A DNA stretch of 64,000 nucleotides, taken from NCBI GenBank assembly GCA_016720805.1, contig JADKJZ010000002.1, forward strand, positions 92,664 through 156,663, given 5' to 3'. The stretch is from Gemmatimonadota bacterium (GTDB lineage: Bacteria > Gemmatimonadota > Gemmatimonadetes > Gemmatimonadales > GWC2-71-9). Each line of letters opens with the position of its first letter. The stretch's first letter is position 1. Shown one piece after another: positions 8,675-27,660 of the stretch. A program made the position numbers and the translations under genes. The notes below the pieces were generated by a model. That model was not told the DNA's origin and ran no database searches. It saw only the letters and a program-made list of their open reading frames with translations.

Positions 8675-8845
8675 GGAGATACTCCCGAGGGGGCCTGCGG
8701 AAGCTACCAGCGCATGACGGCCTGGGGGCGGGGAGGTTTCGGCAACCAGGAAAGGTCATCCTCTCGCAGGGGATGCCGGACACCGTCCCGGGGCGCGGCG
8801 TGGAGCGGCCCCCTCGATGCCGGGAACCGCCCCCTAGAGTGGCGC

Positions 8846-9589: not shown

Positions 9590-10312
9590 ATGGCGACCGA
9601 GACCACGATCGGCATCGACGAGGATCGGCGCCGCGCCCGCGCGGAGCATCAGGCACTCCTCCGACGCATCATCGCCGTCTACGACTCGCCGATCATCCGG
9701 GCCTATTGCACCATCCGCTTCCTCATCATCAACATCGACATTCTGCAGATCATCGGCCTCGGGATGCGCGACAAGCGACGGGTGCTGGAAATCGGCTGCG
9801 GCTTCGGGCTGTTCGGGCTCTACTTCGCTTCTCGCAACCCGGCGTTGCTCTACCACGGCTTCGATATCGATGCCGGACGGATCGCGATGGCCCGTGAGGC
9901 GGCCAAACGGCTGGGGCTCACCAATCTCCGCTTCGAGGTTGGGGATGCCTGCACCGACTTGCCGCTGGACGCGAGCTATGATTGCGTGGTGATGATGGAC
10001 TTGTTGCACCACTTGCCGGACAGCGGCAAGGCACGGCTGCTGCAGGCGACCGTTCCGCGGCTGGAGCCGGGTGGACGCCTCGTGATCAAGGAGATCGCGC
10101 GGCGTCCCGCCTACAAGCGCTGGTTCACCTGGCTGCTCGACGTCGCGATGACGCAGAGCTTCGACATGTGGTACCGACCGGCGGAGACCTATCGTGCCCT
10201 CGTGGCGCCAGAGCTCACGATGGAGACCTATCCGATCGCGGACTGGCTACCGTATCCCCATGTCGTGTACCTCTTCACCCGCCCGGAGGGCGCTCAGGAC
10301 CCGGCGGCCTGA
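9590..10312 (+). CDS. Class I SAM-dependent methyltransferase
   Basis: Only the last 240 aa of the 714-aa track ORF look real. ATG at 9590. Motif I VLEIGCGFGLFGLYFA, acidic loop GFDID, motif post-II VVMMDLLHHL, and GGRLVIKE. The 3' end overlaps the convergent radical-SAM gene by 19 nt. Confidence 0.85.
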   Translation: MATETTIGIDEDRRRARAEHQALLRRIIAVYDSPIIRAYCTIRFLIINIDILQIIGLGMRDKRRVLEIGCGFGLFGLYFASRNPALLYHGFDIDAGRIAMAREAAKRLGLTNLRFEVGDACTDLPLDASYDCVVMMDLLHHLPDSGKARLLQATVPRLEPGGRLVIKEIARRPAYKRWFTWLLDVAMTQSFDMWYRPAETYRALVAPELTMETYPIADWLPYPHVVYLFTRPEGAQDPAA

Positions 10313-11480
10313 CTGGCGTCCCGCGCCTCGTCGGCGCTCGAGGCCCCACCCTTGGCCTTGGGACCATCCTGCTCGAGGTTGATCGGCACCCGTTCCGAGG
10401 GATGAAGCGGGAGCGCCCGACTCCACACCTTCCCGCGCACCAGCGCCTGCACCAGCGGAATCGGCTGATAGGCGATGCTCGACCACATGAAGACCTCGGT
10501 CGTGCAGTGGCATTCCTTGTTCGCGATCGAGGCGCGGAGCCGCTTCGCCTCCTCCGAATGCCAGATCTCGGGGAAGGTGTTGTTGCGCAGGTTGCCGATC
10601 GGCGCGTGAATCTCGCAGACACCGACATCCCCGTTCGCGTACACGACCCCGGAGATCCGACCCGCCTTGCACGGGATCACCTGTCGGTTCTGCTTGACGG
10701 TTTCCACCTTGCCCCACTGCAGCATCGGCTCCATCAGGAGCCGCGCCGCCCGACCTCCCGCGGCGCCCAGAGCCGCCGGATGTACTCGTAGAGCTCCTCG
10801 TACAGCGCCAGGCTCGGTCCCACCAGCGTCGGATTCTTCCGGTCGCCGCGGATGATCGCGAGGTTGTGGTGGTCCATCTGCGGACACCGTTCATACAAGT
10901 AGGTCGTCAGCTTCCGGATCTCGTCCATGTTGACGTCGGTGGCCGTCGAGATGGAGTGGATGCGCAGCCGCGGGTCGGACTTCTGCAGCTCGACCAGCGC
11001 GTCGTACGTCTCCATGGCATGCTGGAAGGCGTGGCGCGCGACGCGGAAGTTGTCGTGAAATTCCGGCATGCCGTCCAGCGAGATCTCGGCGACGAACAGC
11101 TTGAGGCTCGGCTCCTTGAGGACCTCGGTGATCGCCGCGATCGTCCGGGCCGTGAAGTAGCCGTTCGTCGGGACGTAAATCTCCTTCACCCCGTTGTGCT
11201 GGATGAACTGCCGGCAGATCTCGCCGAATTCCGGGCGAAGGAACGGTTCCCCGCCGGAGAGATTCAGGTTCTCGATCTTCCCCAGCGAGCGCGAGAGGGC
11301 AAAGAGCTCGTCCTTCGTCAGGTCGTTCTTCTGGTTCAGGGCGGTCCAGTAGAAGCAGTGCTCGCACTTCATGTTGCAGATCGAGTTGATGAACAGCACC
11401 AGAAATGGCGGGCTATCCATGTCGCGATAGGAGTAACTCGTCAGCCGGGCATGACGCGCCAGGCGCTGGATCGGGTTCAT
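10294..11480 (-). pseudogene. Radical SAM enzyme with C-terminal SPASM/twitch-like Cys cluster, apparent frameshift near 10745-10770 (authentic or sequencing error)
   Basis: N-terminal frame ([10 protein letters not shown]...) has the CxxxCxxC motif CNMKCEHC, plus GGEPFL and a TIM-barrel-like core, and ends ...[17 protein letters not shown] second frame continues ...[44 protein letters not shown]...NKECHC. That fits the Cx12Gx4C and CxC pattern of auxiliary-cluster domains. Confidence 0.75.
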
Positions 11481-11561
11481 CGACACCCTCGGGGGGATGG
11501 TTGAGCTGCTTGAGGGGAGCAAGGGCCGGGCCAGACGCTCACCCGCATCGGTGAATATGCA

Positions 11562-11624: not shown

Positions 11625-14600
11625 TCAGGGAGTGCGATACAGCGTCAGGACGCCACTCTGGGTCGGCGAAATGCTGACCGTCCCGTTGGCAGTCGCCGTG
11701 ACACTGGGGAGCGTGCTCCGCGTGCCGGACGAATTGGTCATTTCGACCCCGTAGGTGCCGACGCGCATGCCCCCGACGGTGTAGGTGCCCGGGGCATCGA
11801 TGTGCAACACCACGGCCATCCCCGCTCCAGGATTGGTGAACGCCACCGGACGGACCGAGCCGCTCAGGCTGGTGGCCGCCACCCGGGTCGCGCCGGCCCG
11901 CACGTAGCGGAAGTACTGGCGCAGCGACTTCGTCAGCGCCCCCATCACCGGCCGGCCGCCGCTGATGTAGTAGTACTGGGCGCCGTTGTCGTTGGTCGGG
12001 TAGGCGAGCGTGTACTGCTGCCACGCCGACACGTTGCCGAGCGTCAGGTCTGCGTAGAGATCCTCGACACCGCTCCCGATATGCTCGAGCATTGCGGTGC
12101 CGAGGCCGAGCTGCGCCGCGCGCGTCTTGATGCCGACCACGTTGGCGTCGGAGACGCCGGCATAGCGGTGGTAGGCGACGTCCGTGAGGTAGGTGAGCGC
12201 ACCCGGGACGGCCACAATCTGATTGAGATAGGCCACGGCGTTGCCCATGTTCATCACCGACGGCGCAATGAAGTCGGGATGGAAGCCTGCCGCGGCGAGG
12301 CGCGCACCGGTCGTGGCGATCAGGCCGCCAATGCCGGTCCCGGTCCGGATGGTGTTGTTGTCCGGCTCGAGAATCACTTCGACCGCGTTCGGCACGAAGC
12401 CGTACTGGCTCTGCATGTGCTGGAAGGTGGCCAGGATCAATTCGGCGTATTCGGCCGCCGATTGCTGTGCCGTCGAGTTGCCGAAGGAGACGTAGTTCAA
12501 GTTGACGTACAGCGCCTCACCGCGCGCCGCGAGCCGCGTCCGCATCGGCAACACCGTCGATTCGATCGACTCATCCAGCTTCGACCACTTGAAGCCCGAA
12601 CCATTGGCGCTGTTCGGATCGGCGTTGTCGTTGACCCAGGCATAGCGCTGCGCGTTGTACTGCGCGGAGGTGATCGTGCCGGCACGGTACTGCGCGTAGT
12701 AGTCGACGGTATTTTCCGCGCCGCTGGCAATCTCCAGGCGGAGACGGTTGATGCCGAGGTCGTTGGCGGCGAGATCCATCAGTTCCGTCTGATATCCCGC
12801 GAACCCCGGCTCCGCCTGCCCGACCTGCGTGGTGGCTTCCCATCCCGTCATCAGCTGGAAGCGGATGGTCGTGTCCACGGTGATGGTCGCCGGCGCGGCG
12901 ACGGCGGTGTAGGCCACCGATCGGGTCGCCGTGGCGCCGGCCGTGACCGTCGCGGTCTGCGAACTCGGTGCCGGGGTGTAGCTGGTCCCGCCCGACGTCA
13001 CGGTGCTCGAGGTGATGGTGTACGTGCCGGGCGTCAATGCGGTGATGGTCTCGGTCGCAGTCACCGAGTGGCTGTAGCTGTTCGGTCCGGTCACCGTGAT
13101 GACGGAATTGGCGCCACCCGGGAGCCCGCTCACCGTCACCGTCAATTGCCCGGTGGTGGGTGCCGGCACGGCGTAGGCGATGCTGCTGCTGCTGCTGCCA
13201 CCCGCCGTGATCGTGGCGGCCTGCGAAGTCGGGGTGGCGAGGTAGGTGACACCACTCGCGACCACCGACGTCGCGGCGACGGTGTAGCTGCCCGGCAACA
13301 ACCCGGTGATCGTCTCATTGGCCGTGACGGCATGGCTGTAGCCGTTCGGTCCGGTCACCGTGATGGCCGCATTCGCGCCACCCGGGAGCCCGCTGATCGT
13401 TACCGACAACTGTCCGGTGGTCGGCGCGGCCACGGCATAGGCGACGGCACCGGTACCGGTGGCGCCTGCCGTCACGGTCACGACCTGCGAAGTCGGTGCG
13501 GGCAGATAGCTCACACCGCTGAGTACGACCGGTGTGGCGGTGACGGTGTAGCTCCCCGGTGCCAATCCCTCGAGGGTCGTCGTCGCGGGGACCGCGCGGC
13601 TGAAGCCGTCCGGTCCGGTGACGGTGATTGCCGCCGCGGCGGGGGCGGGGACGCCGCTGACCGTCAGCGTCAGGCTGCCGGTGGTCGGGCTCGGCGCTGC
13701 GTAGCTGAAGGCGGTGACCGTGCGAACGCCGGCGGTGATCGCCGCCGCCTGGGCGGTAGGCGTCGGGAGATAGCTGACGCCACCGACCGTCACGGCGCTC
13801 GCGGTGACGGTGTATCCACCGATCGGAAGCGCGTTGATCGTTTCGGAGGTCGTGACCTGACGGCTGTATCCGTTCGGGCCGGTCACCGTGATCGCGGCCG
13901 CCGCACCACCCGGGAGGCCGTTGATGTCGACCGCCAGCTGCCCCATGCTGGGGGTGGGCGCGACATAGAGGACCGAGACGGCGACCGTGGTGCCCCCGAC
14001 GACGGTGGCAACCTGCGACGCCGGGCCAGCCAGATAGTTGACGCCGGTGACCGTGACGGGACTGGCGGCAACAGTGTAGCTGCCGGGCGTCAGGCCGTCG
14101 ATCGTGGTCGAGGCGGTGACCTGGAACGGGGTGCCATCGGGGCCGGTCACCGTGATGGCGGCGGCCGCGGGAATCGGGAGGCCGGCGATGGTCATCTGAA
14201 GCTGTCCCAACGTCGGCGAGGGCACGCTGTAGGCGACGTTGGCGGTGGCGCTCGCACCGGCGACGATGGTGACGGTCTGGGACGACGGAGACGGCGTGTG
14301 GCTGAGGCCGTTGACGAGCACGGCGACGGAATTGACGGTGTAGGAGCCCGGCGCCAATCCATCGATGACGGATGTCGCGTTCACGAGGCGTGCGTAGCCA
14401 TTCGGTCCGCTCACGGCGATCGCCGCCGGCGCACCGCCGCCGAGACCGGTGACCTGGAGGTTGAGTCCTCCAGTCACCTGGGTGGACGGTGGTGCATAGG
14501 TCACGGCAACCGCGGCGACGTTGCCGCCGGTGACCGTGATCACCTGCGAGGCCGGGGTCGGGATATGTCGCGCGCCCTCGACCGCCACCTCGCTGGCCGC

Positions 14601-15395
14601 CACGGTGTAGCTGCCGGGGGTCAGCTGCTCGAGCTGCGACGAGGCCGTCAGAGTCGCTGCGAAGTTGTTGGGGCCGCTGATCGTGATCGCGGCCATCGCG
14701 CCAGTCGGGAGCCCGCTGGTGGTGACCGAGAGCGCACCGCTCGCCGCCACGACCCGGCGATACTGCACGACGCCGGTCCGCATTTCGGCGGTCACCACGA
14801 CGACCGATTGACTCGCCGGTTCCGCCGCGTAGGTCTCGCCATCGATCGTGACGGGATTGGCCGCGATCAGATAGGTGCCGGCAATGAGGCCAGCCGCGGA
14901 GGTGGTCGTCGTCAGGTTCTGGTAGAAGCCGCTGGGGCCGGAGACGGCGACCGCGCCATTCACGCCGGCCGGCAGCCCTTCGACGGCCACCGTCAGGCTG
15001 CCGGAACGCGGTGCCCCCGGATGGTAGTCGACGTGGGCGCTTGCCGTGCCGCCGCCGTTGACGGTGATGGTCTGAAACGCCGGGCTGGCCAACAGGGTGA
15101 CGTCGGCGGCGTCGACGTCCTGCGCCGCGAGCTGGTACTCGCCCGGCGTGAGGCCGGAGAGCATGCGGCTCGAGGTGAGGGTATCAATCCGGTTTGGTCC
15201 GATGACGATCAGGCGACCTGCCACACCCGCCGGCAACCCGGAGAGCGACAACTCGAGGGCACCGGTCGGCGCGGGACCCGTCAGGCCGCCACTGTCGGTC
15301 TCGCCACACGAGGCGGTCAGCAACAACGCCAGAAGAACGCGCCACCCGAGGGTGGTACGGGAAGATTTGGAGGAAATCGGCGTCATGTTCGTCAT
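11625..15395 (-). CDS. Cell-surface lipoprotein: nine tandem Ig-like repeats fused to a C-terminal GH30-like glycosidase-fold domain
   Basis: 1256 aa. Lipobox-like LLALLLTASC. The repeats cover aa 45-835. The last 421 aa align by eye to GH30 landmarks: VTVD..IRFQ.M.GWE, LGINRLRLE, EVILEPDN, FIAPSVMN, VAYHRYAG, AMLEH, SAWQQY, LRQYFRYVRAGATRV, plus a terminal beta-sandwich. Confidence 0.85.
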   Translation of the reverse strand: MTNMTPISSKSSRTTLGWRVLLALLLTASCGETDSGGLTGPAPTGALELSLSGLPAGVAGRLIVIGPNRIDTLTSSRMLSGLTPGEYQLAAQDVDAADVTLLASPAFQTITVNGGGTASAHVDYHPGAPRSGSLTVAVEGLPAGVNGAVAVSGPSGFYQNLTTTTSAAGLIAGTYLIAANPVTIDGETYAAEPASQSVVVVTAEMRTGVVQYRRVVAASGALSVTTSGLPTGAMAAITISGPNNFAATLTASSQLEQLTPGSYTVAASEVAVEGARHIPTPASQVITVTGGNVAAVAVTYAPPSTQVTGGLNLQVTGLGGGAPAAIAVSGPNGYARLVNATSVIDGLAPGSYTVNSVAVLVNGLSHTPSPSSQTVTIVAGASATANVAYSVPSPTLGQLQMTIAGLPIPAAAAITVTGPDGTPFQVTASTTIDGLTPGSYTVAASPVTVTGVNYLAGPASQVATVVGGTTVAVSVLYVAPTPSMGQLAVDINGLPGGAAAAITVTGPNGYSRQVTTSETINALPIGGYTVTASAVTVGGVSYLPTPTAQAAAITAGVRTVTAFSYAAPSPTTGSLTLTVSGVPAPAAAAITVTGPDGFSRAVPATTTLEGLAPGSYTVTATPVVLSGVSYLPAPTSQVVTVTAGATGTGAVAYAVAAPTTGQLSVTISGLPGGANAAITVTGPNGYSHAVTANETITGLLPGSYTVAATSVVASGVTYLATPTSQAATITAGGSSSSSIAYAVPAPTTGQLTVTVSGLPGGANSVITVTGPNSYSHSVTATETITALTPGTYTITSSTVTSGGTSYTPAPSSQTATVTAGATATRSVAYTAVAAPATITVDTTIRFQLMTGWEATTQVGQAEPGFAGYQTELMDLAANDLGINRLRLEIASGAENTVDYYAQYRAGTITSAQYNAQRYAWVNDNADPNSANGSGFKWSKLDESIESTVLPMRTRLAARGEALYVNLNYVSFGNSTAQQSAAEYAELILATFQHMQSQYGFVPNAVEVILEPDNNTIRTGTGIGGLIATTGARLAAAGFHPDFIAPSVMNMGNAVAYLNQIVAVPGALTYLTDVAYHRYAGVSDANVVGIKTRAAQLGLGTAMLEHIGSGVEDLYADLTLGNVSAWQQYTLAYPTNDNGAQYYYISGGRPVMGALTKSLRQYFRYVRAGATRVAATSLSGSVRPVAFTNPGAGMAVVLHIDAPGTYTVGGMRVGTYGVEMTNSSGTRSTLPSVTATANGTVSISPTQSGVLTLYRTP
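12891..15263 (-). repeat. Nine in-frame tandem coding repeats of about 264 nt (88 aa)
   Basis: Consensus G(Q/S)L(S/T)(V/L)T(V/I)SGLPGGA(N/A)AAITVTGPNGYS..VT..ETI..L.PGSYTV.A..V...GV.Y...P.SQ...I.AG......AY..P.PTT. Repeats 5-9 are much more alike than repeats 1-3. Confidence 0.85.
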
Positions 15396-15896
15396 CGTCA
15401 GTCCAGTTCCATTGGGATGCAGCCCAACGACGAGCCTCGTCGTCGGACGTCCCCCGCGTCTCGCGAAGGGGGAATCCCGCTGGCGGCTGGGCGGGCTGCC
15501 ACACCGTCGATACGGCGCTGGCGGACAGCTCCCTGGCTCTGCGACTCCGGGTCGCCCCGGGTGTGCTCTGTGCAGCGGTATGTCACCTGCGCCGGGCTGT
15601 TCTCCCGGTCCTGGTGTTTAGAAACTGCAAGGGAGAGGCCACAGTCGCCTCCCGCGCGTACATATCCAATAAGCCGTTGTTTTATAACGACTTATACGAC
15701 TGCATATCGGCGACTGCCATTCAGAGTATCGGCAGGCTATCTCACAAATAGACAGTGCACCACCGGCCGGCGCCTGCCTGGAGGCATCCGGCCCCTCACG
15801 CGGCAAGGTGCCGAGTGGGGGCGGTAAGGTACTGCATGGTGCAGAGTTGGCTGGAAGCGGGTCGCGGCAGGACGGGGCGGGATACTGCGGGGGTGG

Positions 15897-17390
15897 TTAC
15901 TGGGTCGCGGGTCGCCGTTTGAGGATGCGCACCTCACCGCCGCCAATGCTGGCCGGAACCTGGTGCGCGATGGTATAGGCGGAGTCGAGGTAGCTGGCGA
16001 GTGCCGGGGCCGTGGACTCCAGCCGGATGGGAAAGGTGGTGACCACCCACGTGGTCGCTGTTCCGGCCTCCAGCGCCTGCAGCTCGCCGACCGTGCGCAC
16101 GATCGGCCACTGCTGCCCGAGCCACTGGTTCATCGGGAGTTCCATCATCTCCGTGCCGATGATCGGCTCGGTCGGCGTCCGCGCCTCGGCGAGCCAGGTC
16201 AGGGCGGCGGGGTAGTCCTGTTTCGGCGCCCAGGCGCGAGGCAGCAACAGCAATGACGCCAGCGTGACGGCTGACAGTCCCGCGTCCCCGATCCTGGTCG
16301 CGGCGCGAGGCAGCAGGCGCGCCAGCACCACGAAGCCACCGTGCACAGCCCACTGCACAACGAACGCGGCACCAAAGAAGAAGAACCGCGGCCACATGTT
16401 GTGACCGGTCGAGAGCAGCAGCGCCGCCATCATCAGCAGCGGCAGGACCATCATGATGGCCGCGAGTCGGTGGTGTCGCCACGCATCGTGCAGTCCGGCA
16501 AGCACCACCACGGCCGTGACCGGCAGCACCAGCGCACCGGCTGGCACGCCACGGATCAAGCCGGCAATCGCCTCGGCCAGAAACCACCCCGGGCGCTGCC
16601 ACTCGGCGCCCGTGACCCCCGTCCCGGACGATCCCAGCGCCCCGACGAGTTGGGGGAGGACCGGCGCGTAGAGCATCATCGCCACCGTGCCACCGAGGAC
16701 CAGCGCCACGCCGGGCGCCCAGCGTGCGGTGCCCCGTGGCTGCGCACGCAGCCACAGGAGCCAGCACACCCCGTGACCGGCCACGACGACCAGGGCGGTG
16801 ACGTGCGTCAGCAGCGTCAGCGCCACGACCAGCGCGTAGCTCCAGACCCGACGCCTCGTCGCAGGCGTGTCGCGGAGCATGTCGAGCATCAGGCTGCTGG
16901 AGACCAGGGTGCCGAGCAACAAGCCGGTGTAGCCGCGCGCGTTCTGGGAGAACCAGACGTGGTGGTAGGACACGGCGAGCAGGGCGCCGGACCACCACGC
17001 CTCGCGCGCGGGGATCCAGCGACGGCCGAAGGCCACGGTGGCCCAGAGACTCAACACGCCGAAGATCACGGCGGGAAGTCTGAGCATTGCCGCCGATTCT
17101 CCGCCAATCGCCCGCACGCCGCGGGCGGCGATCGAGAAGAGAAAGTGCTGATTGGTGCTGTCGAAGGTCGTGAGCAGGACACTCCACGGCTGGCGCACGT
17201 ACTCGACCAGCGTCTGGATTTCATCAAACCAGAGGCCGTCGTTGAGGCCGGGGAGGCGGGCGGCAAGGCCGACGATCAGCAGCACGAGGACGGGGATGAG
17301 GGGGAGCGGAGGCGCGGCTGTGGCCGCGGCGTCATGCGACGGCACGATGCGGCGCAGCCAGCGCGCGACCACGACATGCGCGGCCAGCAA
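15897..17390 (-). CDS. GT-C fold glycosyltransferase, PMT_2 / GT39-GT83 (ArnT/Pmt-like) family
   Basis: 497 aa and multi-TM throughout. First-loop acidic motif LNDGLWFDEIQT. The C-terminal soluble region of about 90 aa is probably periplasmic. TTG start as in the track; the true start is uncertain. Confidence 0.7.
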   Translation of the reverse strand: MLAAHVVVARWLRRIVPSHDAAATAAPPLPLIPVLVLLIVGLAARLPGLNDGLWFDEIQTLVEYVRQPWSVLLTTFDSTNQHFLFSIAARGVRAIGGESAAMLRLPAVIFGVLSLWATVAFGRRWIPAREAWWSGALLAVSYHHVWFSQNARGYTGLLLGTLVSSSLMLDMLRDTPATRRRVWSYALVVALTLLTHVTALVVVAGHGVCWLLWLRAQPRGTARWAPGVALVLGGTVAMMLYAPVLPQLVGALGSSGTGVTGAEWQRPGWFLAEAIAGLIRGVPAGALVLPVTAVVVLAGLHDAWRHHRLAAIMMVLPLLMMAALLLSTGHNMWPRFFFFGAAFVVQWAVHGGFVVLARLLPRAATRIGDAGLSAVTLASLLLLPRAWAPKQDYPAALTWLAEARTPTEPIIGTEMMELPMNQWLGQQWPIVRTVGELQALEAGTATTWVVTTFPIRLESTAPALASYLDSAYTIAHQVPASIGGGEVRILKRRPATQ

Positions 17391-17577
17391 GGCGAGGAAA
17401 AGCCAGAGTCCGACTGTGACGTCGGATGCGCCGGGAGCGACCGTTGCATCGCGGAGGACCGTCGCCAGTGTGCCCGGAAGGTTCGGCAGCCGAGACCCCT
17501 GAAGTGTGGGTTATCCTTTTGGCACGCCCAGTATACGCATTCCACGTTGGACCCGACAGGGAAGCCCGGGAGGGTGC

Positions 17578-18945
17578 ATGGTGATGCCGACGCGCGGAAT
17601 GCTCATGCTGCTCCTCGTCCTGCCGAGCTCCGGTGCGCACGCCCTCCAGCAGGCACCACTCGCGTCCCCGGCCGCACGCCAGAGCACGGCCGTGGTCACG
17701 GTCGACACTGCCACGCGCTTTCAGCGGATGAGCGGTTGGGAGGCGAACGCGCAAGCGGGGGAGGCGGAACCGGGGTTTGTCGGCTGGCAGGCGGAACTCA
17801 TGGACCTCGCGGCGAACGATCTCGGCATCAATCGCATCCGGGTGGAGCTCCGCAGCGGTGCCGAGCACCGCGTGGATCACTACGCGCAATTCCGGGCGGG
17901 CACGATGCCGGAACCCGCCTGGGAGGCCGTCCGGTATGCGTGGGTCAATGACAATGACGATCCCGCGACGATCAACCCGGACGGCTTCCACTGGACGGCA
18001 CTCGACGAGCACCTCGATGCAACGGTCGTCCCGCTGCGGGCGCGCCTCGCGGCGCGCGGCGAGACACTCTACCTCAACCTGAACTACGTCTCCTTCGGAA
18101 CCTCCACGGCGCAGCAGGACCCGGCCGAGTATGCGGAGTTGATGCTGGCGGCGTTCCAGCACATGCAGAGCCGGTACGGCTTTGTCCCCGATGCGATCGA
18201 GGTGCTCCTCGAGCCCGAGAACACCGCGTGGCGCGCACCACGCATCGGGCAGGCGATCGCGGCGGCCGGGGCGCGGCTGGCCGCGGCAGGCTTCCACCCC
18301 GACTTCATCGCGCCGTCGGTGATGGACATGGCGAACGCCGTCCCGTTTCTCGATGAGATCGTCCAGGTGCCCGGGGCGCTGACCTACCTCAAGGAGATCG
18401 CCTACCATCGCTATGGTGGCGTCTCCGATTCCAACCTCGCGGCGATCCATGCACGTGCGGTGCAGTACGGGCTGCGGACGTCGATGCTGGAACACATCGG
18501 CAGTGATGCCGAGGATCTGTACAAGGACCTCACCATCGCCCAGGTCTCGGCCTGGCAGCAGTACACCCTCGCCTACCCGACCACCGACAACGGGGCGCAG
18601 TACTACTACATCAAGAACGGACGCCCGGTCGCGGGCCAACGCACCGAGGCCCTGCGCCAATATTTTCGCCACGTGCGGGCCGGGGCGTTTCGAGTGGGGG
18701 CCGCCAGCGACACCCCGCGTGTCCGACCCGTGGCGTTCACGAATCCGGACGGTCGGGTCGTCGTCGTGCTGCACCTGGAGCGCAGCGAAGTGCTCACCCT
18801 GAAGGGGCTGCCGGCGGGTCGCTACTACGTCGTTGCCGTGCCGGCCACCGCCGGCCTGGTCTACGCGACGGATATTCCGACCGGGGGGGACTTCGTCTTC
18901 GCGATGGGACTCCCCAGCATCGTCACGGTCTACCAAGTGCCATGA
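17578..18945 (+). CDS. Secreted GH30-like glycosidase-fold protein (paralogue of the C-terminal domain of 11625-15395)
   Basis: ATG at 17578 is preceded by GGGAGGG. Signal MVMPTRGMLMLLLVLPSSGAHA. 51 of 72 residues were identical to the other paralogue over the first stretch I counted. Same landmarks: EVLLEPEN, FIAPSVMD, IAYHRYGG, SMLEH. Confidence 0.8.
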   Translation: MVMPTRGMLMLLLVLPSSGAHALQQAPLASPAARQSTAVVTVDTATRFQRMSGWEANAQAGEAEPGFVGWQAELMDLAANDLGINRIRVELRSGAEHRVDHYAQFRAGTMPEPAWEAVRYAWVNDNDDPATINPDGFHWTALDEHLDATVVPLRARLAARGETLYLNLNYVSFGTSTAQQDPAEYAELMLAAFQHMQSRYGFVPDAIEVLLEPENTAWRAPRIGQAIAAAGARLAAAGFHPDFIAPSVMDMANAVPFLDEIVQVPGALTYLKEIAYHRYGGVSDSNLAAIHARAVQYGLRTSMLEHIGSDAEDLYKDLTIAQVSAWQQYTLAYPTTDNGAQYYYIKNGRPVAGQRTEALRQYFRHVRAGAFRVGAASDTPRVRPVAFTNPDGRVVVVLHLERSEVLTLKGLPAGRYYVVAVPATAGLVYATDIPTGGDFVFAMGLPSIVTVYQVP

Positions 18946-19051
18946 CGCCCTCCCCGGAGCCCACCGGGGGGAGTACCTTGGGCGTTGTGGCACCCCACGT
19001 GCATCATCAACACCCAGAACTCAGCCTGCCCCGCCGTTGCCGGAGGATTGC

Positions 19052-19945
19052 GTGATCGAAGAGATCGTCGGGGATGCGTCTGCCGCTCTCCCCCGAGCCG
19101 TGAGTGTGGTGATCCCTGCCTTCAACGAGGGCGCCCATGTTGCCGACCAGGTGCGGGCCGTCCAGGCCACGATGGCGACGAGCGGGTGGGAGTACGAGAT
19201 CATCGTGGTCGACGACGGTTCGCGCGATCATACCGCCACCGAGGCCGACGCCACCGGCGCGCGGGTGCTTCGACGGGCCATGAACCGCGGCTACGGCGCG
19301 GCGCTCAAGGTGGGGATTCGGCGGGCACGCTTCGACTGGATTCTGATCACCGATGCCGACGGGACCTACCCGGTGGAGTCCATTCCGGAACTGCTGGCCC
19401 GCGCCGAGCACAACGCAATGGTGGTCGGCGCGCGGCTCGGCAAGTCGGTCCAGATTCCGCTGATTCGCCGGCCGCCGAAGTGGTTCCTGAACCGCCTGGC
19501 GAGTTACCTCGCCGGCCAACGGCTCCCCGACATCAACTCCGGCCTCCGCCTGATGCGGAAGTCGCTGGTCGAGCGCTACGAGTACCTCCTCCCCGACGGC
19601 TTCTCCTTCACCACGACGATCACGCTCGCCGCCGCCTGCAACGGGCACCCCTTCGAGTACATCCCGATCAACTATCACGCACGACTCGGCGAGTCGAAGA
19701 TCCGCGCGCGTCATGCCTACGACTTCACCCTGCTGATTCTGCGGATCATCGTCGTCTTCAATCCGCTCAAGGTGTTCATCCCGGTGGGCGCGATCCTCGC
19801 GGCCCTGGGGCTGGCGAAGTTCGGCTACGACATCACCAAGGACAACCTCTCCGAAAGCGCGGTGCTCGGACTGATCGGGGCGCTGGTCGTCTGGGCGGTC
19901 GGGCTCCTCGCCGACCAGAACACGCGATTCGCCAGCCGCCGTTGA
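19052..19945 (+). CDS. GT2 glycosyltransferase of polyprenyl-phosphate sugar synthase type (DPM1/ArnC/GtrB-like)
   Basis: GTG at 19052 follows GGAGGA. VSVVIPAFNEG...EIIVVDDGSRDHT...ITDADGTYP (DxD-type). Two C-terminal TM helices (LLILRIIVVFNPLKVFIPVGAILAALGL and AVLGLIGALVVWAVGLLA). Confidence 0.8.
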   Translation: MIEEIVGDASAALPRAVSVVIPAFNEGAHVADQVRAVQATMATSGWEYEIIVVDDGSRDHTATEADATGARVLRRAMNRGYGAALKVGIRRARFDWILITDADGTYPVESIPELLARAEHNAMVVGARLGKSVQIPLIRRPPKWFLNRLASYLAGQRLPDINSGLRLMRKSLVERYEYLLPDGFSFTTTITLAAACNGHPFEYIPINYHARLGESKIRARHAYDFTLLILRIIVVFNPLKVFIPVGAILAALGLAKFGYDITKDNLSESAVLGLIGALVVWAVGLLADQNTRFASRR

Positions 19946-20910
19946 AGCCCTGGCTCAAGGCGACCATCAGCGTCGCGCTGCTTGCCCTGCTCCTCGTGCT
20001 GTTGCCGTGGGGACAAGTGCGCGATGCGATCGGTCGACTGCCACCGCGCGTCTGGGCCGGCGTCGCGGCCGGATTCATCCTCGGCCACGCGCTCGGGATC
20101 TTCAAGTGGCGGCTCTTCGTCAATGCGGCCGGTGCGGGACTCACCCGGATCGACGCGACGCTCTGCTATGCCGCTGGTCTCTTCGCCAACCTCTGCCTGC
20201 CCAGCATCGTCGGCGGTGACGTGTTGCGGATCGCCCTCGCGGGGCGACTGACCAAGCGGCCCGAGGCCGCGTTGTGGGGCGGCATCATGGATCGCCTCAC
20301 CGACATGCTGGCGTTGGCGCTGCTGGTGACCGGTGGGGCGTTGATGGCCCGCACGCAGCTCGACGGCTGGACCGGCGAGGTGCTCGGCATCACGCTCATG
20401 GTCGGGGTCGGGCTGGTGGTGCTCGCCCTGCCGCTCACCCTGCGGCGGCCGCTCGCGCGCTGGCCGCGCCGATTGCGGCGCCCGGTCGGTCGCGGGCTGG
20501 TCGGGCTTCGCCAGCTCCGGCGGCGGCCAGGGACCGCGCTCCTCGGGCTCTCCCTCTCGCTGCTGATCCAGGGCAGCTTCGTGCTCCTCAACGCCTGGCT
20601 CGGGCGGAATGTCGGGATCCACGTCGGCCTGGCCGTCTGGTTCCTCGTCTGGCCGCTGGCGAAGATCGCGTCGCTCATGCCGATCTCGCTGGGTGGTCTC
20701 GCCGTGCGCGAGGCCAGTCTGGCCGCCCTGCTGGTGCCCTTCGGGGTACCGGTCGCGTACAGTGTCGTCTGCTCACTGCTGTGGCAATCCGTCCTGATCG
20801 TCGGGGGTCTCTTCGGCGGGCTGGTATGGCTTGTGCTCCATCGTTCGCGTCGCATCAGCTTCGGCGTGAGCCATGGGAACATCAGCGTGACGGAGACGAA
20901 GGGGGAGTAG
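19942..20910 (+). CDS. UPF0104 / LPG_synthase_TM (MprF-flippase-like) integral membrane protein
   Basis: TTG start overlaps the GT2 stop (TTGA at 19942-19945). About 320 aa and multi-TM. Family-like LPSIVGGDVLRI and PISLGGLAVREASL motifs. Confidence 0.7.
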   Translation: MKPWLKATISVALLALLLVLLPWGQVRDAIGRLPPRVWAGVAAGFILGHALGIFKWRLFVNAAGAGLTRIDATLCYAAGLFANLCLPSIVGGDVLRIALAGRLTKRPEAALWGGIMDRLTDMLALALLVTGGALMARTQLDGWTGEVLGITLMVGVGLVVLALPLTLRRPLARWPRRLRRPVGRGLVGLRQLRRRPGTALLGLSLSLLIQGSFVLLNAWLGRNVGIHVGLAVWFLVWPLAKIASLMPISLGGLAVREASLAALLVPFGVPVAYSVVCSLLWQSVLIVGGLFGGLVWLVLHRSRRISFGVSHGNISVTETKGE

Positions 20911-22337
20911 TGAGCGCAGGGGCACATCGGGTGGTCATTCTCGGGGCCGGGCCGGCAGGGGTCGGCGCGGCCTATCGTCTGCGGCAGGATGCCCGAGCCG
21001 AGGTGACGGTGCTCGAGCAGCACGACGTGCCAGGTGGAAACGCCGGCAGCTTCGAGTTTGGCGGCATGCGCGTCGACTTCGGCAGCCACCGCTTGCACCC
21101 GGCCTGCGATCCCGAGATTCTGGCCGACATTCGCGGCTTTTTGGGCGATGACCTCCGTGACCGTCCGCGCCATGGTCGGATCGGCCTGCGCGGCCGGTGG
21201 ATCCATTTCCCGTTGAAGCCGATCGACCTGCTGGTCCGCCTCGACCCGGGCTTCGCGCTCGGGACGCTGCGCGACATGATCAGCAAGCCGTTCCGCGCGG
21301 CGCCCGCGGGCGACAGCTTCGGCGACGTGCTGATGGCCAATCTCGGTCCGACCATCTGCGAGTCGTTCTACTTCCCCTATGCGCGCAAGATCTGGGGTCG
21401 CGAGCCGACGGCGCTCTCCGGGATCCAGGCGCGTCGGCGAGTCTCCGCGGGTTCGTTCCTGAAGCTCGCGCGCAAGGTGCTCTCCGCCGTGCCGGGGCTC
21501 AAGCCACCGGGGGCGGGGCGTTTCTTCTATCCCGCGAAGGGCTTCGGACAGATCACCGAGGCGTATGCCTCCGCCGCGACGACGCTCGGGGCGGATCTGC
21601 GATACGGCCGCCGGGTGACTCGACTGGTCCCCCCTGCCACGGACACGGATCCGTGGGTGATCGAGATGACCTCCGATCAGGGCGCGGAGCGCATCGAGGC
21701 AGATCAGTTGTGGTCGACGATTCCGGTTGCGCTGCTGGCGCGCCTGATCGGCACCGGTGTGCCCGAGACGGTCCACGAGGCCGCCGCGAAGCTCGAATCC
21801 CGGGCGATGTTGCTCATCTACCTCTCGCTGCCGGTGCCGTCGTTCACTGAATACGACGCGCACTACTTTCCGGGCGCGAATATCCGGATCACGCGGCTGT
21901 CCGAGCCGAAGAACTATCCCGGCCTCGGACAACCCCCGGAGCGCACTGTGCTCTGCGCCGAGCTCCCGTGCGGTCCCGGCGATCCGTGGTGGACCATGGA
22001 TGACGCCGCGCTGGGTGCCCTGGTCGCCGAGGACCTCGCGACGGCAGGTGTTCCGCTGCCCGTTGCGCCGACCGCCGTGCTCGTCCGCCGTCTCCCGCAG
22101 GCCTACCCGGTCTACACCACCGGCTACGAGCGGTGGTTCGGCATCCTCGATCAGTGGGTGGAGAGTCTCCCGCGGCTGTTGAGCTACGGTCGGCAGGGGC
22201 TGTTCGCGCACGACAACACTCACCACGCGCTGGCGATGGCGTACGCTGCCTCGGACTGTCTGGATCCGGATGGCTTCGATCAAGTCCGCTGGCGTGCGCA
22301 TCGGGCGATCTTCGACACGCACGTCGTCGAGGATTGA
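20910..22337 (+). CDS. FAD/NAD(P)-binding oxidoreductase (amine-oxidase / protoporphyrinogen-oxidase / UDP-galactopyranose-mutase-like)
   Basis: GTG at 20910 overlaps the preceding TAG by 1 nt and follows GGGGGAG. Dinucleotide fold VVILGAGPAGVGAAYRL...VTVLEQHDVPGGN. C-terminal GRQGLFAHDNTHHALAMA motif. Confidence 0.75.
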   Translation: MSAGAHRVVILGAGPAGVGAAYRLRQDARAEVTVLEQHDVPGGNAGSFEFGGMRVDFGSHRLHPACDPEILADIRGFLGDDLRDRPRHGRIGLRGRWIHFPLKPIDLLVRLDPGFALGTLRDMISKPFRAAPAGDSFGDVLMANLGPTICESFYFPYARKIWGREPTALSGIQARRRVSAGSFLKLARKVLSAVPGLKPPGAGRFFYPAKGFGQITEAYASAATTLGADLRYGRRVTRLVPPATDTDPWVIEMTSDQGAERIEADQLWSTIPVALLARLIGTGVPETVHEAAAKLESRAMLLIYLSLPVPSFTEYDAHYFPGANIRITRLSEPKNYPGLGQPPERTVLCAELPCGPGDPWWTMDDAALGALVAEDLATAGVPLPVAPTAVLVRRLPQAYPVYTTGYERWFGILDQWVESLPRLLSYGRQGLFAHDNTHHALAMAYAASDCLDPDGFDQVRWRAHRAIFDTHVVED

Positions 22338-23866
22338 TGCCCGGCCGTGCACGCATGGCCCGTCGGGCACTCGTACGGGTGGCCAGTCCCGCCGCTGTCC
22401 TCTTCGGGATCGGCATGCTCGCCGCGTTCGGTCACAGCCCCGGAATCGCGTCGCAACGCATCATACCGTCGGAGGAGCGGACGGTCCTGGTCGGCGCAAC
22501 GCTGATCGACGGCAATGGCGGCGCCCCGATGGCTGGTGCCCGAATCGTCATTCAGCACGGGCTGTTCGCCTGCGTCTCCGGCCCGGCGGGGTGCCCGAGC
22601 CGTCCCGGCGACCATGAACTCGATCTGGCCGGGCAGTGGATCACGCCGGGGCTGATCGACACCCATGTCCACCTCCCCTTCGCGGGCCCGCTCTCCGGGT
22701 TGATGCGAGCGCAACGGCTTCGTTTCGCGCTCGGCATCACGACGGTGCGCGACGCGGGCTCACGGTCCACCAACGAACTGCTCGCCGCTCGGACGCTGGC
22801 GGAGCATGCGACATCGCCGATCCCACGGATCGTCGTCGCTTCGCGCGTCGAGGAAGCCGACGCCACGCGCTTGCAGGTGCCGCTTGGGGCACCCGTGGTC
22901 GAGCGATTGGCGGCACTCGGTGTCGAGGCGATCAAGATCAAGCCGCCATTCGACCACGAGATCTGGCGCGAGGAGATACGTGCCGCACGCCGTGCCGGTA
23001 TTCCCGCGTTCGGGCACACCTGGGCGGGGCAGACGGAGGACTTCACCCGCGACGCCATCGCGGAAGGGATCAGCGGCATCAGCCATATCATGGGATTGGT
23101 GCTCGCCGTGCAACCGGCCGGCGCGAAGTTGATCCCGCCGGGGTCGGAGGATGCCTTCTGGCAATGGGAGAAGGCGCTCTGGCTCACCATCGATTCCGCC
23201 CGGGTCGATACCCTGTTCCGCGAGATGATCGCCGCCAACGTCTGGCTCGAACCGACACTGGCGAGCGAGTATCACTTCGGGAGGCCGCTCCTGCCGCCCC
23301 GTCAGACGGAGTTTCTCGATGCGGCGCCGAGCCTGCGTGCGCTGCTGCTGGGCGGAGGCCCGACCGGGTTGCGTCCCGCGCCGGTCTTTCCGGAAGCGTG
23401 GCCGCGGCAGGCGGCGTTCGTGCGCGAATTCGTCCGGCGGGGCGGGATCGTGGTGGCCGGCTCGGATGGGCTCGCGCCGGGCATCGACCTCCACGAGGAG
23501 ATCGCCCTGATTGGCGAGGCGACCGGCTCGCCGATGATCGGACTTCAGGCCGCGACCCGGAATGCCGCGATGGCCCTCAATCACCCTGAGGTCGGGACGA
23601 TCGTGTTGGGGCAAGTCGGGGATGCGGTGATCTATCCGCGGGACCCGCTGGAGACGTCCGGCGGGACCCTCCTGCCCAACCGGGTAATCAAGGGAGGCGT
23701 GTTCTTCGACGGCGATTCGCTGCGCGCGGAATTTCGCGAAGAGTACGACGACCGAGTGCAACTGGCGTGGCGCTCCCGTGGGTGGCGCCTGGCGCAGTGG
23801 AGCGCAGGGATCATCGCGCTGCTCAGTGTGCTCTACCTGCCGCTTCGGGTCTTTCGCCAGCGCTGA
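22337..23866 (+). CDS. Amidohydrolase-superfamily metallohydrolase, membrane-anchored
   Basis: ATG overlaps the preceding TGA (TGATG). N-terminal hydrophobic segment, HxH motif LIDTHVHLP, later GSD and a distal His. C-terminal TM AGIIALLSVLYLPL. Confidence 0.75.
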   Translation: MPGRARMARRALVRVASPAAVLFGIGMLAAFGHSPGIASQRIIPSEERTVLVGATLIDGNGGAPMAGARIVIQHGLFACVSGPAGCPSRPGDHELDLAGQWITPGLIDTHVHLPFAGPLSGLMRAQRLRFALGITTVRDAGSRSTNELLAARTLAEHATSPIPRIVVASRVEEADATRLQVPLGAPVVERLAALGVEAIKIKPPFDHEIWREEIRAARRAGIPAFGHTWAGQTEDFTRDAIAEGISGISHIMGLVLAVQPAGAKLIPPGSEDAFWQWEKALWLTIDSARVDTLFREMIAANVWLEPTLASEYHFGRPLLPPRQTEFLDAAPSLRALLLGGGPTGLRPAPVFPEAWPRQAAFVREFVRRGGIVVAGSDGLAPGIDLHEEIALIGEATGSPMIGLQAATRNAAMALNHPEVGTIVLGQVGDAVIYPRDPLETSGGTLLPNRVIKGGVFFDGDSLRAEFREEYDDRVQLAWRSRGWRLAQWSAGIIALLSVLYLPLRVFRQR

Positions 23867-27060: not shown

Positions 27061-27085
27061 GCTCGGCAGGGTCGTACGCAGGACC

Positions 27086-27138: not shown

Positions 27139-27147
27139 CTGGGGTCG

Positions 27148-27654: not shown

Positions 27655-27660
27655 GGGACC

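Follow-up and report, generated by a model that had tools for sequence, protein, structure and literature searches.

A conserved gene cluster of a Gemmatimonadota bacterium, predicted to encode an elaborated three-component periplasmic glycosylation module with GH30-fold accessory proteins

The window, i.e. the whole stretch of 64,000 nucleotides of Gemmatimonadota DNA analysed here, carries a cluster of seven open reading frames encoding proteins A to G (Table 1). All seven were recovered from the window sequence at the coordinates proposed by an earlier sequence-only reading of this DNA, and their third-codon-position G+C of 0.82-0.89, as compared to about 0.68 for the window, fits the expectation for real genes. 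The gene junctions described in that reading were also found: the D and E genes overlap in TTGA (19942-19945), the E stop and F start form TAG/GTG with the G at 20910 in common, and F and G overlap in TGATG (22335-22339). The 187-bp spacer from which the B and C genes diverge agrees with the gene calls of a close relative, which place a gap of 204 bp between a GT-C protein of 491 aa and a GH30-like protein of 455 aa; no sigma-70-type promoter was found by consensus scan of this spacer. Two further elements were absent from the earlier annotation, namely a radical-SAM/SPASM gene beyond A and, within the 501 bp that separate B from A, a promoter and a riboswitch. In the window, a frameshift splits the radical-SAM gene at the junction GGCTCCTGATGGAGCCG, which forms a TGATG stop/start overlap, and tblastn with the intact radical-SAM protein of locus L016 gave 84% identity in frame -3 (11516-10737) and 76% in frame -2 (10734-10342). 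The gene is intact (395 aa) at loci L081-L083 of the nearest relatives, where its N-terminal part is 99% identical, and both the Radical_SAM and SPASM domains were detected by Pfam on an intact homologue. The window is also rich in secreted hydrolases, including M28 peptidase, DPP-IV, sulfatase and beta-lactamase-fold proteins.

Table 1. Features of the cluster, with positions in the window
Feature	Position	Strand	Basis
Radical-SAM/SPASM gene, frameshifted near 10734-10737	10294..11480	-	tblastn, Pfam
Sigma-54-type -24/-12 element TGGCCCGGCCCTTGC, 39-53 nt upstream of radical-SAM ATG	11519..11533	-	pattern match
Protein A, 1256 aa, repeat lipoprotein with C-terminal GH30-like domain (837-1256)	11625..15395	-	sequence analysis
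GEMM-I class cyclic-dinucleotide riboswitch aptamer (predicted), 5' leader of A	15478..15577	-	Rfam models, covariation
Sigma-54-type -24/-12 element TGGCCTCTCCCTTGCA, upstream of riboswitch	15626..15641	-	pattern match, alignment
Terminator-like hairpins with T-rich tail, downstream of B	15753..15773	-	consensus scan only
Protein B, 497-aa GT-C glycosyltransferase, PMT_2/ArnT-like type	15897..17390	-	structure prediction, orthologue alignment
Divergent intergenic spacer between B and C	17391..17577		about 90% identical to L081 spacer
Protein C, 455-aa secreted GH30-fold protein	17578..18945	+	AlphaFold, Foldseek, family profile
Protein D, 297-aa GT2, polyprenyl-phosphate glycosyltransferase type	19052..19945	+	Pfam, NCBIfam, PDB profile matches
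Protein E, 322-aa UPF0104/LPG_synthase_TM flippase-like membrane protein	19942..20910	+	Pfam
Protein F, 475-aa FAD protein, amine-oxidase fold	20910..22337	+	profile searches
Protein G, 509-aa Amidohydro_1 protein, start overlaps F stop	22337..23866	+	Pfam, hydrophobicity

Two divergent transcription units had been proposed; the divergent spacer stands, and the leftward arm comprises at least two and probably three units, as judged by the hairpin after B, the sigma-54 element and riboswitch before A and the sigma-54-like element before the radical-SAM gene. The hairpins showed no enrichment over shuffled sequences, and the block GCACTGTC.ATTTGTGA downstream of B is kept in L081. The sigma-54 pattern occurs three times in the whole window against 2.2 expected, which is not above chance; in the leader of A its GG and TTGC are invariant with fixed spacing in all 20 aligned loci, and the element before the radical-SAM gene also occurs at -53 in L081-L083, with GGCAT/GGCAC-N-TTGC elements upstream of that gene in L016, L025, L027, L043 and L049. 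The riboswitch copy of the window scored 22.3 bits (E 0.0036) with RF03167, which is under the gathering score, and alignable copies reached 45.3, 37.2 and 36.5 bits with RF01051 (gathering score 35). In the predicted helices 86.7% of the cells pair, as compared to 27-44% when the partners were slid, compensatory changes occur in five pairs, and CAGAGCAC is invariant in 20 copies. The leader of A resembles GEMM-I and GEMM-Ib RNAs in aligning to the c-di-GMP-I model with covarying helices. The position equivalent to Vc2 G20 is a cGAMP-type adenine, a change that occurs in cGAMP-sensing or bispecific GEMM-Ib RNAs (PMC6140456), from which the leader differs by a long insertion in P2 of the window copy, its sub-gathering score and its combination with a sigma-54 promoter. 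These motifs indicate that the gene of protein A has its own sigma-54-type promoter and a predicted GEMM-I class riboswitch.

Protein B was placed in GT-C by its AlphaFold model (pLDDT 86), with which the best 39 Foldseek matches in the PDB were all GT-C proteins, ArnT first. Its WFDEIQT motif has W54, D56, E57, I58, Q59 and T60 invariant among 31 orthologues, so that an invariant DE pair follows the first membrane helix. The profile matches that the earlier reading had expected were obtained for Glycos_transf_2, LPG_synthase_TM and Amidohydro_1, but a Pfam search with B itself gave no match, and PMT_2 was reached, weakly, by 18 of the 31 orthologues. Protein D matched Glycos_transf_2 (4e-27); its top NCBIfam matches were AglJ, Dol-P-hexose transferase, PpgS and ArnC, all far under the equivalog cut-offs, and in the PDB ArnC (9e-20) was followed by DPMS and GtrB. 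Two C-terminal hydrophobic segments (232-250 and 269-287) complete it. These best matches support the polyprenyl-phosphate type of GT2, and the reading of D as a processive polysaccharide synthase was rejected on the same grounds. Protein E matched LPG_synthase_TM with 2.7e-30 and 106 bits (cut-off 33), as its description as UPF0104/MprF-flippase-like had implied.

Relatives of B are encoded at 587 genome loci, of which the best 80 were used for synteny. GT2, flippase-like and FAD genes lie directly downstream of the GT-C gene on the same strand in 44 of the 61 loci with enough flank, with the flippase-like gene between GT2 and FAD in most of them and after FAD in a few. Most of these loci belong to Gemmatimonadota, with a few from MAGs that carry Planctomycetota or Scalindua labels, and of the 51 loci testable for the radical-SAM gene, 9 have it next after FAD. 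L081-L083 show the layout of the window without the amidohydrolase, and the cluster proteins are 88-99% identical to their counterparts there, as compared to 81-84% for flanking genes; because the layout recurs and the cluster is more conserved than its flanks, the clustering is not due to chance. The cluster is real and conserved, and these neighbourhoods point to a core of GT-C, GT2, flippase-like and FAD genes, with or without radical SAM. With synteny this strong, B inside GT-C and D outside the processive synthases, the earlier reading is partly upheld. On the other hand, GT2, flippase and FAD genes are absent within 10 kb of the GT-C gene in L001-L004, which hold the closest B orthologues outside the genus, so the pairing of B with D, E and F is not universal. 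Related loci hold further GT-Cs and a decaprenyl-phosphate phosphoribosyltransferase above the NCBIfam cut-off, and by this gene content appear to be envelope-glycan loci using lipid-linked donors. No experimental annotation was found among homologues of the cluster proteins.

The GH30 fold of protein C was supported by its AlphaFold model (pLDDT 88.5), by Foldseek (top 50 all GH30, E 4e-22, TM about 0.7) and by its family profile, which found only GH30 chains in the PDB; E212 (LLEPEN) and E305 (MLEH) are invariant. Protein A, with a lipoprotein-like signal (LLLTASC) and nine tandem repeats of 87-89 aa (residues 42-833), ends in a domain that likewise has the GH30 fold and is 66% identical to C over 382 aa. 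It is 92-96% identical in L081-L083, and A-like proteins lie near the GT-C gene in L001, L003 and L004. Glycoside hydrolases such as PslG and BcsZ are encoded within exopolysaccharide operons, and here likewise a secreted clan GH-A-type glycosidase gene lies beside glycan-synthesis genes; the window proteins differ in their GH30 fold, with about 15% identity to any solved GH30 and with Leu in place of the Asn that normally precedes the putative acid/base Glu. The system is not, as had been proposed, built around the GH30 paralogues, since the recurrent core is GT-C/GT2/UPF0104/FAD and GH30-like genes occur in only 11 of the best 80 loci; they are better described, on this distribution, as a lineage-specific accessory. 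Protein G is an Amidohydro_1 protein with a hydrophobic segment on either side of its catalytic domain, a topology that suggests that the domain is periplasmic. L081-L083 lack it, and relatives only 26-29% identical occur, in a different position, in 8 of the best 80 loci, so that a role as an ArnD-like cytoplasmic deacylase was not upheld and G is probably not a component of the system. It is somewhat unlikely that the GH30-like proteins and the amidohydrolase are all functionally unrelated neighbours, i.e. ordinary secreted hydrolases of a soil bacterium: their sparse distribution and the abundance of secreted hydrolases in the window agree with this, but GH30 proteins are encoded close to the GT-C gene at L081-L083 and at each of the five loci with the closest orthologues, turn up again in distant loci, among them one in a MAG labelled Scalindua, and are more conserved than the flanks. 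For protein G alone this explanation is probably right.

Protein F has an amine-oxidase fold, matched PRK07208 with 5.6e-67, and is by profile searches closest to eukaryote-type UDP-galactopyranose mutase (UGM), as the amine-oxidase/UGM-like label had suggested. Its family profile matched T. cruzi UGM with 3.8e-20 (positions 4-352) as compared to 4e-10 for protoporphyrinogen oxidase, and PF03275 GLF was found in some homologues; the C-terminal third does not align to UGM, and the bacterial UGM model gave 17 bits only. In the alignment the GxH loop is retained (G58-S59-H60 against GGH63), and R177 and R329 align with R182 and R327, the catalytic arginines of A. fumigatus UGM; the loop and both arginines match invariant residues. 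Flippase-like and FAD genes remain adjacent beside the GT-C gene without a neighbouring GT2 in four Planctomycetota-labelled loci (L033, L070, L073 and L077), and this gives a hint that F acts together with E and not on a soluble nucleotide sugar. F could then be a redox enzyme on the lipid-linked sugar, as DprE1 is in the epimerisation of DPR to DPA, with the radical-SAM/SPASM enzyme or another reductase completing an epimerisation or deoxygenation before flipping. F does belong to the amine-oxidase/DAO superfamily, and auxiliary epimerases acting on polyprenyl-P-pentofuranoses are known (PMC11127046), but the best and longest similarity of F is to UGM, not to oxidases, and the UGM loop and arginines are retained. 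DprE1, moreover, has a different FAD fold, and we regard this role as unlikely.

Whether B could be a PMT-like protein O-glycosyltransferase acting on lipoprotein A bears on the acceptor. B has a DE motif in its first outer loop, as PMTs do, the A gene lies next downstream of B and encodes Ser/Thr/Pro-rich inter-repeat linkers, AP(S/T)P(T/S)TG, as candidate sites, and A-like proteins accompany the closest B orthologues. However, an A-like gene is missing from most loci with the cassette, A is transcribed apart from B and under different regulation, and the best structural match is ArnT, whose acceptor is a lipid, with no PMT chain ranking above 35th, which makes this substrate quite improbable. 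Highly improbable is a GpgSDF/HexSDF-type pathway to an aminoglycolipid, in which the GT2 would glycosylate a membrane glycerolipid, the amidohydrolase deacylate the sugar and the UPF0104 protein flip a glycolipid that is the end product, not a GT-C donor: the gpgSDF operon (glycosyltransferase, deacetylase, UPF0104 flippase) makes GlcN-phosphatidylglycerol, with HexSDF cited as a parallel (PMC12713373), and GT2, UPF0104 and amidohydrolase genes form one overlapping string here, but GpgS belongs to GT4 and GpgD to the COG3233 deacetylases (PMC12713373), while the nearest matches of D are ArnC, DPMS and GtrB, the G domain is probably periplasmic, neither the nearest relatives nor the conserved cassette includes G, and the GT-C gene, which has no counterpart there, is the constant partner.

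We favour, with some reserve, the prediction that the locus is an elaborated three-component periplasmic glycosylation module. The class of three-component systems is established, and its members include additional enzymes that modify the sugar and flippases of several families (PMC11127046); GtrA/GtrB/Gtr* and Citrobacter ORF15/MATE/GT136 share the logic of synthase, flippase and GT-C; the flippase there is GtrA, MATE or SMR and here putatively UPF0104, the auxiliaries here are a UGM-like flavoprotein and a radical-SAM/SPASM enzyme, and the locus is not an O-antigen one. The same triad of GT-C, DPM-like GT2 and UPF0104 occurs in archaea, where AglD-type GT2s are fused or adjacent to UPF0104, beside a PMT/STT3-like GT-C (MJ_1079/MJ_1080); this neighbourhood, known from comparative genomics only, is the published basis for predicting UPF0104 as the flippase of AglD-type pathways, and UGM-like FAD and radical-SAM genes are not reported as part of it in the available portion of that source (PMC5898192). 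The earlier statement that no characterised system of this composition was known to the reader needs qualifying by these two precedents; the composition is not wholly unprecedented. The Arn pathway supplies the best solved relative of D and the best structural match of B, but D scored 72 bits against an ArnC cut-off of 529, the locus has no ArnA, ArnB or ArnD homologue or ArnEF-type flippase, and G, periplasmic as it probably is and not conserved, is not an ArnD analogue. GT-Cs of the mycobacterial DPA/arabinan and PpgS-Rv3632-Rv3779 systems likewise work outside the membrane with donors that are linked to lipid, furanoses among them, and the phosphoribosyltransferase homologue of related Gemmatimonadota loci recalls them; D scored 75 bits against a PpgS cut-off of 370, and no UbiA, DprE1 or DprE2 homologue was found in the window.

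In the pathway that we infer from folds and families, gene order and conservation, and riboswitch and promoter motifs, the most likely course is that a sugar is linked to a lipid within the cell, flipped across the membrane and then joined to a glycan or protein of the surface. On the cytoplasmic side, protein D would load polyprenyl phosphate with a sugar taken from a nucleotide sugar, F would prepare or remodel the sugar, our best guess being a mutase that converts the nucleotide sugar from pyranose to furanose, and the radical-SAM/SPASM enzyme may modify it further. E would flip the polyprenyl-P-sugar to the outer face, where B would pass the sugar on to an acceptor outside the cytoplasm. 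This would be a glycan of the envelope or, possibly, the Ser/Thr/Pro-rich linkers of lipoprotein A. The secreted C and lipoprotein A may trim, process or bind the resulting glycan, and control of A by a sigma-54 promoter and a cyclic-dinucleotide riboswitch would tie the system to surface or biofilm physiology.

The locus is best supported as an elaborated form of the three-component glycosylation systems, which are an established class (PMC11127046). In this model protein D, a 297-aa GT2, would make a polyprenyl-phosphate sugar, protein E, a 322-aa UPF0104 protein, would flip it, and protein B, a 497-aa GT-C, would transfer the sugar outside the membrane. In a scan with one genome per species, 587 loci encoded a relative of B, and the best 80 were kept, 61 of them with enough downstream sequence for the cassette to be counted. 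A GT2 directly follows the GT-C in 50/61, a flippase-like protein and an FAD protein lie downstream in 48/61, and all three partners are present in 44/61, so the conserved synteny that the sequence-only reading called for is there. The loci are mostly from Gemmatimonadota, the full cassette is also found in a Scalindua-labelled MAG, and in four Planctomycetota-labelled MAGs the GT-C, flippase-like and FAD genes are present with no adjacent GT2. Of the 51 loci in which this could be tested, 9 have a radical-SAM/SPASM gene after the FAD gene. The cassette is rearranged in the window, with the GT-C running one way and a GH30-like gene, then the GT2, flippase-like and FAD genes, on the other strand. 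A close relative (L081-L083) has, in the orientation of the window, an intact radical-SAM gene (395 aa), protein A (a 1256-aa repeat lipoprotein with a GH30-like C-terminus) and the GT-C leftwards, and the GH30-like, GT2, flippase-like and FAD genes rightwards; the cluster proteins are 88-99% identical between the two, and the flanking genes 81-84%. We conclude that the core consists of GT-C, GT2, UPF0104 and FAD proteins, with or without the radical-SAM gene.

The assignment of B was taken from structure prediction because sequence searches of the PDB, with B alone or with a 31-sequence profile, gave only noise. The AlphaFold model, built on 31 orthologues, was confident (pLDDT 86, pTM 0.86), and the Foldseek matches at ranks 1-39 in the PDB were all GT-C chains (ArnT, STT3/AglB/PglB, ALG9/12, DPY19, AftA/B/D, Emb and Pmt), with ArnT 5ezm on top (E 1.8e-7). 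B has the multi-helix membrane fold of the superfamily and an acidic motif in the first extracytoplasmic loop, WFDEIQT at residues 54-60, directly after the first membrane helix, in which D56 and E57 are invariant among the 31 orthologues. The confident model, the GT-C matches and the invariant pair keep B inside GT-C, which was the point on which the earlier proposal chiefly depended. The PMT_2 match expected for B was absent from B itself, which had no Pfam match at E 0.01 and no NCBIfam match, but appeared weakly in 18/31 orthologues (PF13231, best E 8e-6), and many Gemmatimonadales relatives at 40-47% identity carry PF13231 and the NCBI name 'GT39 family'.

D matched the Pfam GT2 family at 4e-27, and its best solved relatives were ArnC (9e-20), DPMS (4e-15) and GtrB (1e-7). 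AglJ, dolichyl-phosphate hexose transferase, PpgS and ArnC were the best named relatives in NCBIfam, and the models of cellulose and PNAG synthases scored far lower, as was anticipated for a non-processive enzyme. Together with two C-terminal hydrophobic segments (232-250 and 269-287), these matches give D the architecture of the DPM1/GtrB/ArnC-type enzymes. By sequence, D is thus a putative polyprenyl-phosphate glycosyltransferase and the orthologue of no named enzyme, since it scored far under every equivalog cut-off (ArnC 72 versus 529, AglJ 100 versus 325, PpgS 75 versus 370). E matched PF03706 LPG_synthase_TM (UPF0104) over residues 9-286 with 106.3 bits against a gathering cut-off of 33.4, in agreement with its description as MprF-flippase-like. 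Lipid flipping has been demonstrated for the MprF domain only; for GpgF and AglD-C it is a prediction (PMC12713373, PMC5898192). E is a predicted flippase because of the MprF precedent and of the archaeal AglD fusions and GT-C/GT2/UPF0104 neighbourhood that are described in PMC5898192.

Protein F, the 475-aa FAD protein, has the amine-oxidase fold and the FAD Rossmann motif GAGPAG, as the earlier call of an amine-oxidase/UGM-like oxidoreductase implied. A 22-member profile of its family matched UGMs of the eukaryote type best (T. cruzi UGM, 3.8e-20, positions 4-352), followed by protoporphyrinogen oxidase (4e-10), and other flavoenzymes matched in the dinucleotide-binding part only; the similarity to UGM includes the substrate domain, and PF03275 GLF was found on some homologues. 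The invariant H60, R177 and R329 of the family pair with H63, R182 and R327 of A. fumigatus UGM in a manual reading of one HMMER alignment; in the A. fumigatus enzyme these are the histidine of the catalytic loop (GGH) and the two essential diphosphate-binding arginines. The C-terminal third of F, including the UGM C-terminal Tyr/Asn positions, lies outside the alignment, and F scored 17 bits against the cut-off of 304 for the UGM equivalog TIGR00031. Its top NCBIfam match was PRK07208, a 'hypothetical protein' (226 bits versus a cut-off of 380), on which a literature search found nothing. F most plausibly supplies the furanose form of the sugar. The main alternative is that F is a redox enzyme acting on the lipid-linked sugar and not a mutase, in favour of which the flippase-like and FAD genes are tightly adjacent also in loci without a neighbouring GT2.

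The last rightward gene encodes protein G (509 aa), which matched Amidohydro_1 and carries hydrophobic segments at both ends; the segments agree with the proposed membrane anchor and suggest that its catalytic domain is extracytoplasmic. G-like proteins were found in only 8 of the best 80 loci, where they are placed differently and share 26-29% identity with G, and L081-L083 have no amidohydrolase, a cytochrome c gene following the FAD gene there. G is therefore probably a bystander despite its overlapping start, and the role of an ArnD-like deacylase that had been given to it does not hold, in view of its two membrane segments and its lack of conservation. The Arn pathway has the ArnD deformylase at the cytoplasmic face and the SMR-type flippase ArnEF, whereas here the non-conserved Amidohydro_1 protein G and the UPF0104 protein E are found. 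An aminoglycolipid model like that of GpgSDF (PMC12713373) fits superficially, as the genes form a GT2-UPF0104-hydrolase string, but the topology and non-conservation of G and the constant partnership of the GT-C stand against it.

The radical-SAM gene, which lies directly downstream of A, is interrupted by a frameshift and is otherwise 99% conserved; the break may reflect an assembly error, a pseudogene or a gene that is truly split. The protein had no NCBIfam equivalog, the best matches being NirJ/AhbC-like at less than 80 bits against cut-offs of at least 500. Because related loci repeatedly contain sulfatase-like genes, a role as anaerobic sulfatase maturase was weighed; the best 25 NCBIfam matches listed included no such model, and the sulfatase-like proteins seem to have no CxPxR motif in the one representative read. 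A reading as a hopanoid HpnI/J/K/L-like set (GT2, radical SAM, deacetylase, UPF0104) was dropped because the radical-SAM protein is of the small SPASM type and scored 36 bits on HpnH against a cut-off of 225.

GH30 enzymes characteristically have two catalytic glutamates, one at the end of strand 4 and one at the end of strand 7. The model of protein C, the 455-aa secreted GH30-like protein, had a pLDDT of 88.5, and its top 50 Foldseek matches in the PDB were all GH30 (about 15% identity, TM 0.6-0.7), so that C and the C-terminus of A, which is 66% identical to it, have a (beta/alpha)8 barrel with an attached beta-sandwich. The invariant E212 (LLEPEN) and E305 (MLEH) of C lie at strand ends in the model, with Leu in place of the usual Asn before the putative acid/base Glu. 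By sequence only the C-terminal sandwich was recognized (PF17189, 4e-5); the Pfam model of the GH30 catalytic domain matched neither C nor the C-terminus of A, and PDB matches of the family profile covered positions 326-468 only. The GH30-like calls were thus borne out in fold but not in profile membership of the catalytic domain. Each of the five closest orthologue loci has a GH30-like gene near the GT-C, as do a few distant loci, giving 11 of the best 80 among the 587, and we conclude that these proteins are a lineage-specific accessory; a system built around two GH30 paralogues, as the sequence-only reading had it, gives way to one built on the four-protein core. We infer a role of the GH30-fold proteins and the radical-SAM enzyme in the pathway from linkage only.

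De novo clustering of the neighbours of related loci showed further recurrent genes, namely a second PMT_2 GT-C, Gfo/Idh/MocA, SDR and GMC oxidoreductases and a UbiA protein, as well as two families of multi-helix membrane proteins (about 513 aa, in 48 of the best 80 loci, and about 594 aa, in 26), which may be further GT-C-like enzymes. The 594-aa family weakly matches a Leptospira 'putative glycosyltransferase' family. UbiA exceeds the NCBIfam cut-off for decaprenyl-phosphate phosphoribosyltransferase at L058:8754-9701 and in 14 other related loci and co-occurs with the GMC and SDR oxidoreductases, which together suggest a DPA-like lipid-linked pentofuranose pathway in Gemmatimonadota. The related loci are envelope-glycan loci using several lipid-linked donors. 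None of these additional genes occurs in the window, which lacks homologues of the 513- and 594-aa proteins and of the Gfo/Idh/MocA, GMC, UbiA and SDR proteins.

The window has a G+C content of about 68%, and GC3 is 0.82-0.89 in all seven ORFs named in the sequence-only reading, the codon-position pattern of real genes. The three stop/start junctions are as it described, TTGA at 19942-19945, TAG/GTG sharing the G at 20910 and TGATG at 22335-22339. The GTG at 19052 is most likely the start of D, and gene calls in the close relative agree with the resulting length. None of the seven proteins had an NCBIfam equivalog. The flanks of the cluster (7053-9379 and 25288-32000) encode many secreted or periplasmic hydrolases and DinB-family proteins, including a beta-lactamase-fold protein, two DinB_2 proteins, an M28 peptidase, a sulfatase and a DPP-IV/S9 peptidase, which fits a soil Gemmatimonadota genome.

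Positions of features in the window and in related loci (L numbers)
Feature	Position	Strand	Remark
Frameshift in radical-SAM/SPASM gene	near 10734-10737	minus	halves meet at a TGATG stop/start overlap
Second sigma-54-like element	11519-11533	minus	39-53 nt upstream of the radical-SAM ATG
Protein A	11625-15395	minus	lipoprotein-like signal and nine tandem 87-89-residue repeats
Putative GEMM-I class cyclic-dinucleotide riboswitch, leader of A	15478-15577	minus	downstream of the sigma-54-type element
Sigma-54-type -24/-12 element TGGCCTCTCCCTTGCA	15626-15641	minus	window copy of an element type present in all 20 copies
Membrane families of about 513 and 594 aa (examples)	L042:5161-6699, L038:7808-9589		no Pfam match

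The 501 bp between B and A are conserved in L081-L083, and nhmmer extended this to L001-L004; a pattern scan of metagenomes gave 14 more copies (L084-L097), and 20 copies were compared. In all of them a structured RNA lies downstream of the sigma-54-type element. Three homologous copies exceed the gathering score of 35 of the c-di-GMP-I riboswitch model RF01051 (45.3, 37.2 and 36.5 bits). The window copy, which has the same invariant core and a long P2 insertion, reached 22.3 bits on the GGC-variant model RF03167 (gathering score 59; E 0.0036 in a 301-nt search). Rfam searches of 16 kb or of the whole window gave no match to the window copy, and the riboswitch was recognized only when short stretches of collected homologous leaders were searched. 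The helices pair in 86.7% of cells across the 20 copies versus 27-44% with the partners slid, five pairs show compensatory double changes, and 0/500 shuffles reach the observed values, in agreement with the conserved helices of the GEMM-I clan CL00126. All 20 copies have A at the position of G20 in Vibrio Vc2, as do GEMM-Ib riboswitches that sense cGAMP or are bispecific (PMC6140456). Two of the metagenomic copies precede A-like proteins and most precede small lipoproteins beginning MTYTFKLSRR, which from their leaders look like a cyclic-dinucleotide-controlled family. These lipoproteins (about 140-175 aa) share the N-terminus MTYTFKLSRR(L/M)A, a lipobox and a GWLTV.LT.P..DDGAVQ motif.

Equivalents of the second sigma-54-like element were found in L081 (about 15845) and upstream of the radical-SAM gene in L016, L025, L027, L043 and L049, so that the element recurs in several lineages. 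A sigma-70 promoter scan of 10-25.5 kb found none, and a terminator scan was not above chance. A sigma-54 promoter in the spacer between B and C was rejected on manual reading, TGGCACG being present with no -12 GC at the right spacing. Because of the promoter element and riboswitch before A and the second element before the radical-SAM gene, the leftward arm would comprise at least two, and probably three, separately regulated units, and not the single transcription unit assumed earlier.

No homologue among the matches carried an experimental name. The earlier statement that no characterised system has this composition stands in that a literature search found no paper on the cassette, but the three-component logic itself was already established (PMC11127046). 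With the logic known, what appears new would be the use of a UPF0104 protein as flippase, the auxiliary UGM-like and radical-SAM enzymes, the partnership with GH30-fold proteins and the control by a cyclic dinucleotide and sigma-54. A more detailed reading, which we regard as rather unlikely, is that the cassette, with the radical-SAM/SPASM enzyme, both makes and uses a hexofuranose linked to polyprenyl phosphate, or some other sugar remodelled by flavin or radical chemistry, and that the UPF0104 protein flips it. In this lineage the product would then be a glycan or glycoprotein of the cell surface, and a cyclic dinucleotide, possibly 3',3'-cGAMP, would switch its partner, the lipoprotein with the GH30 domain. 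If the hexofuranose reading is true, the system would be for hexoses what the mycobacterial DPA and Citrobacter systems are for pentofuranoses, and its UPF0104 protein would be the first bacterial polyprenyl-phosphate-sugar flippase of that family.

Gemmatimonadota are abundant soil bacteria, and to our knowledge their envelope glycans are essentially unstudied. In this phylum the riboswitch would connect signalling by cyclic dinucleotides to sigma-54 and surface lipoproteins, and the cassette recurs in hundreds of the phylum's genomes (587 loci with a relative of B; the count of 44/61 is from the best 80). Through it one can test whether UPF0104 proteins flip polyprenyl-phosphate sugars in bacteria, which was predicted in 2015 and of which we know of no demonstration, whether a lipid-linked sugar donor is modified by a UGM-like flavoenzyme of the eukaryote type and a radical-SAM/SPASM enzyme, and which role a distant GH30-fold family has next to a pathway of this kind.
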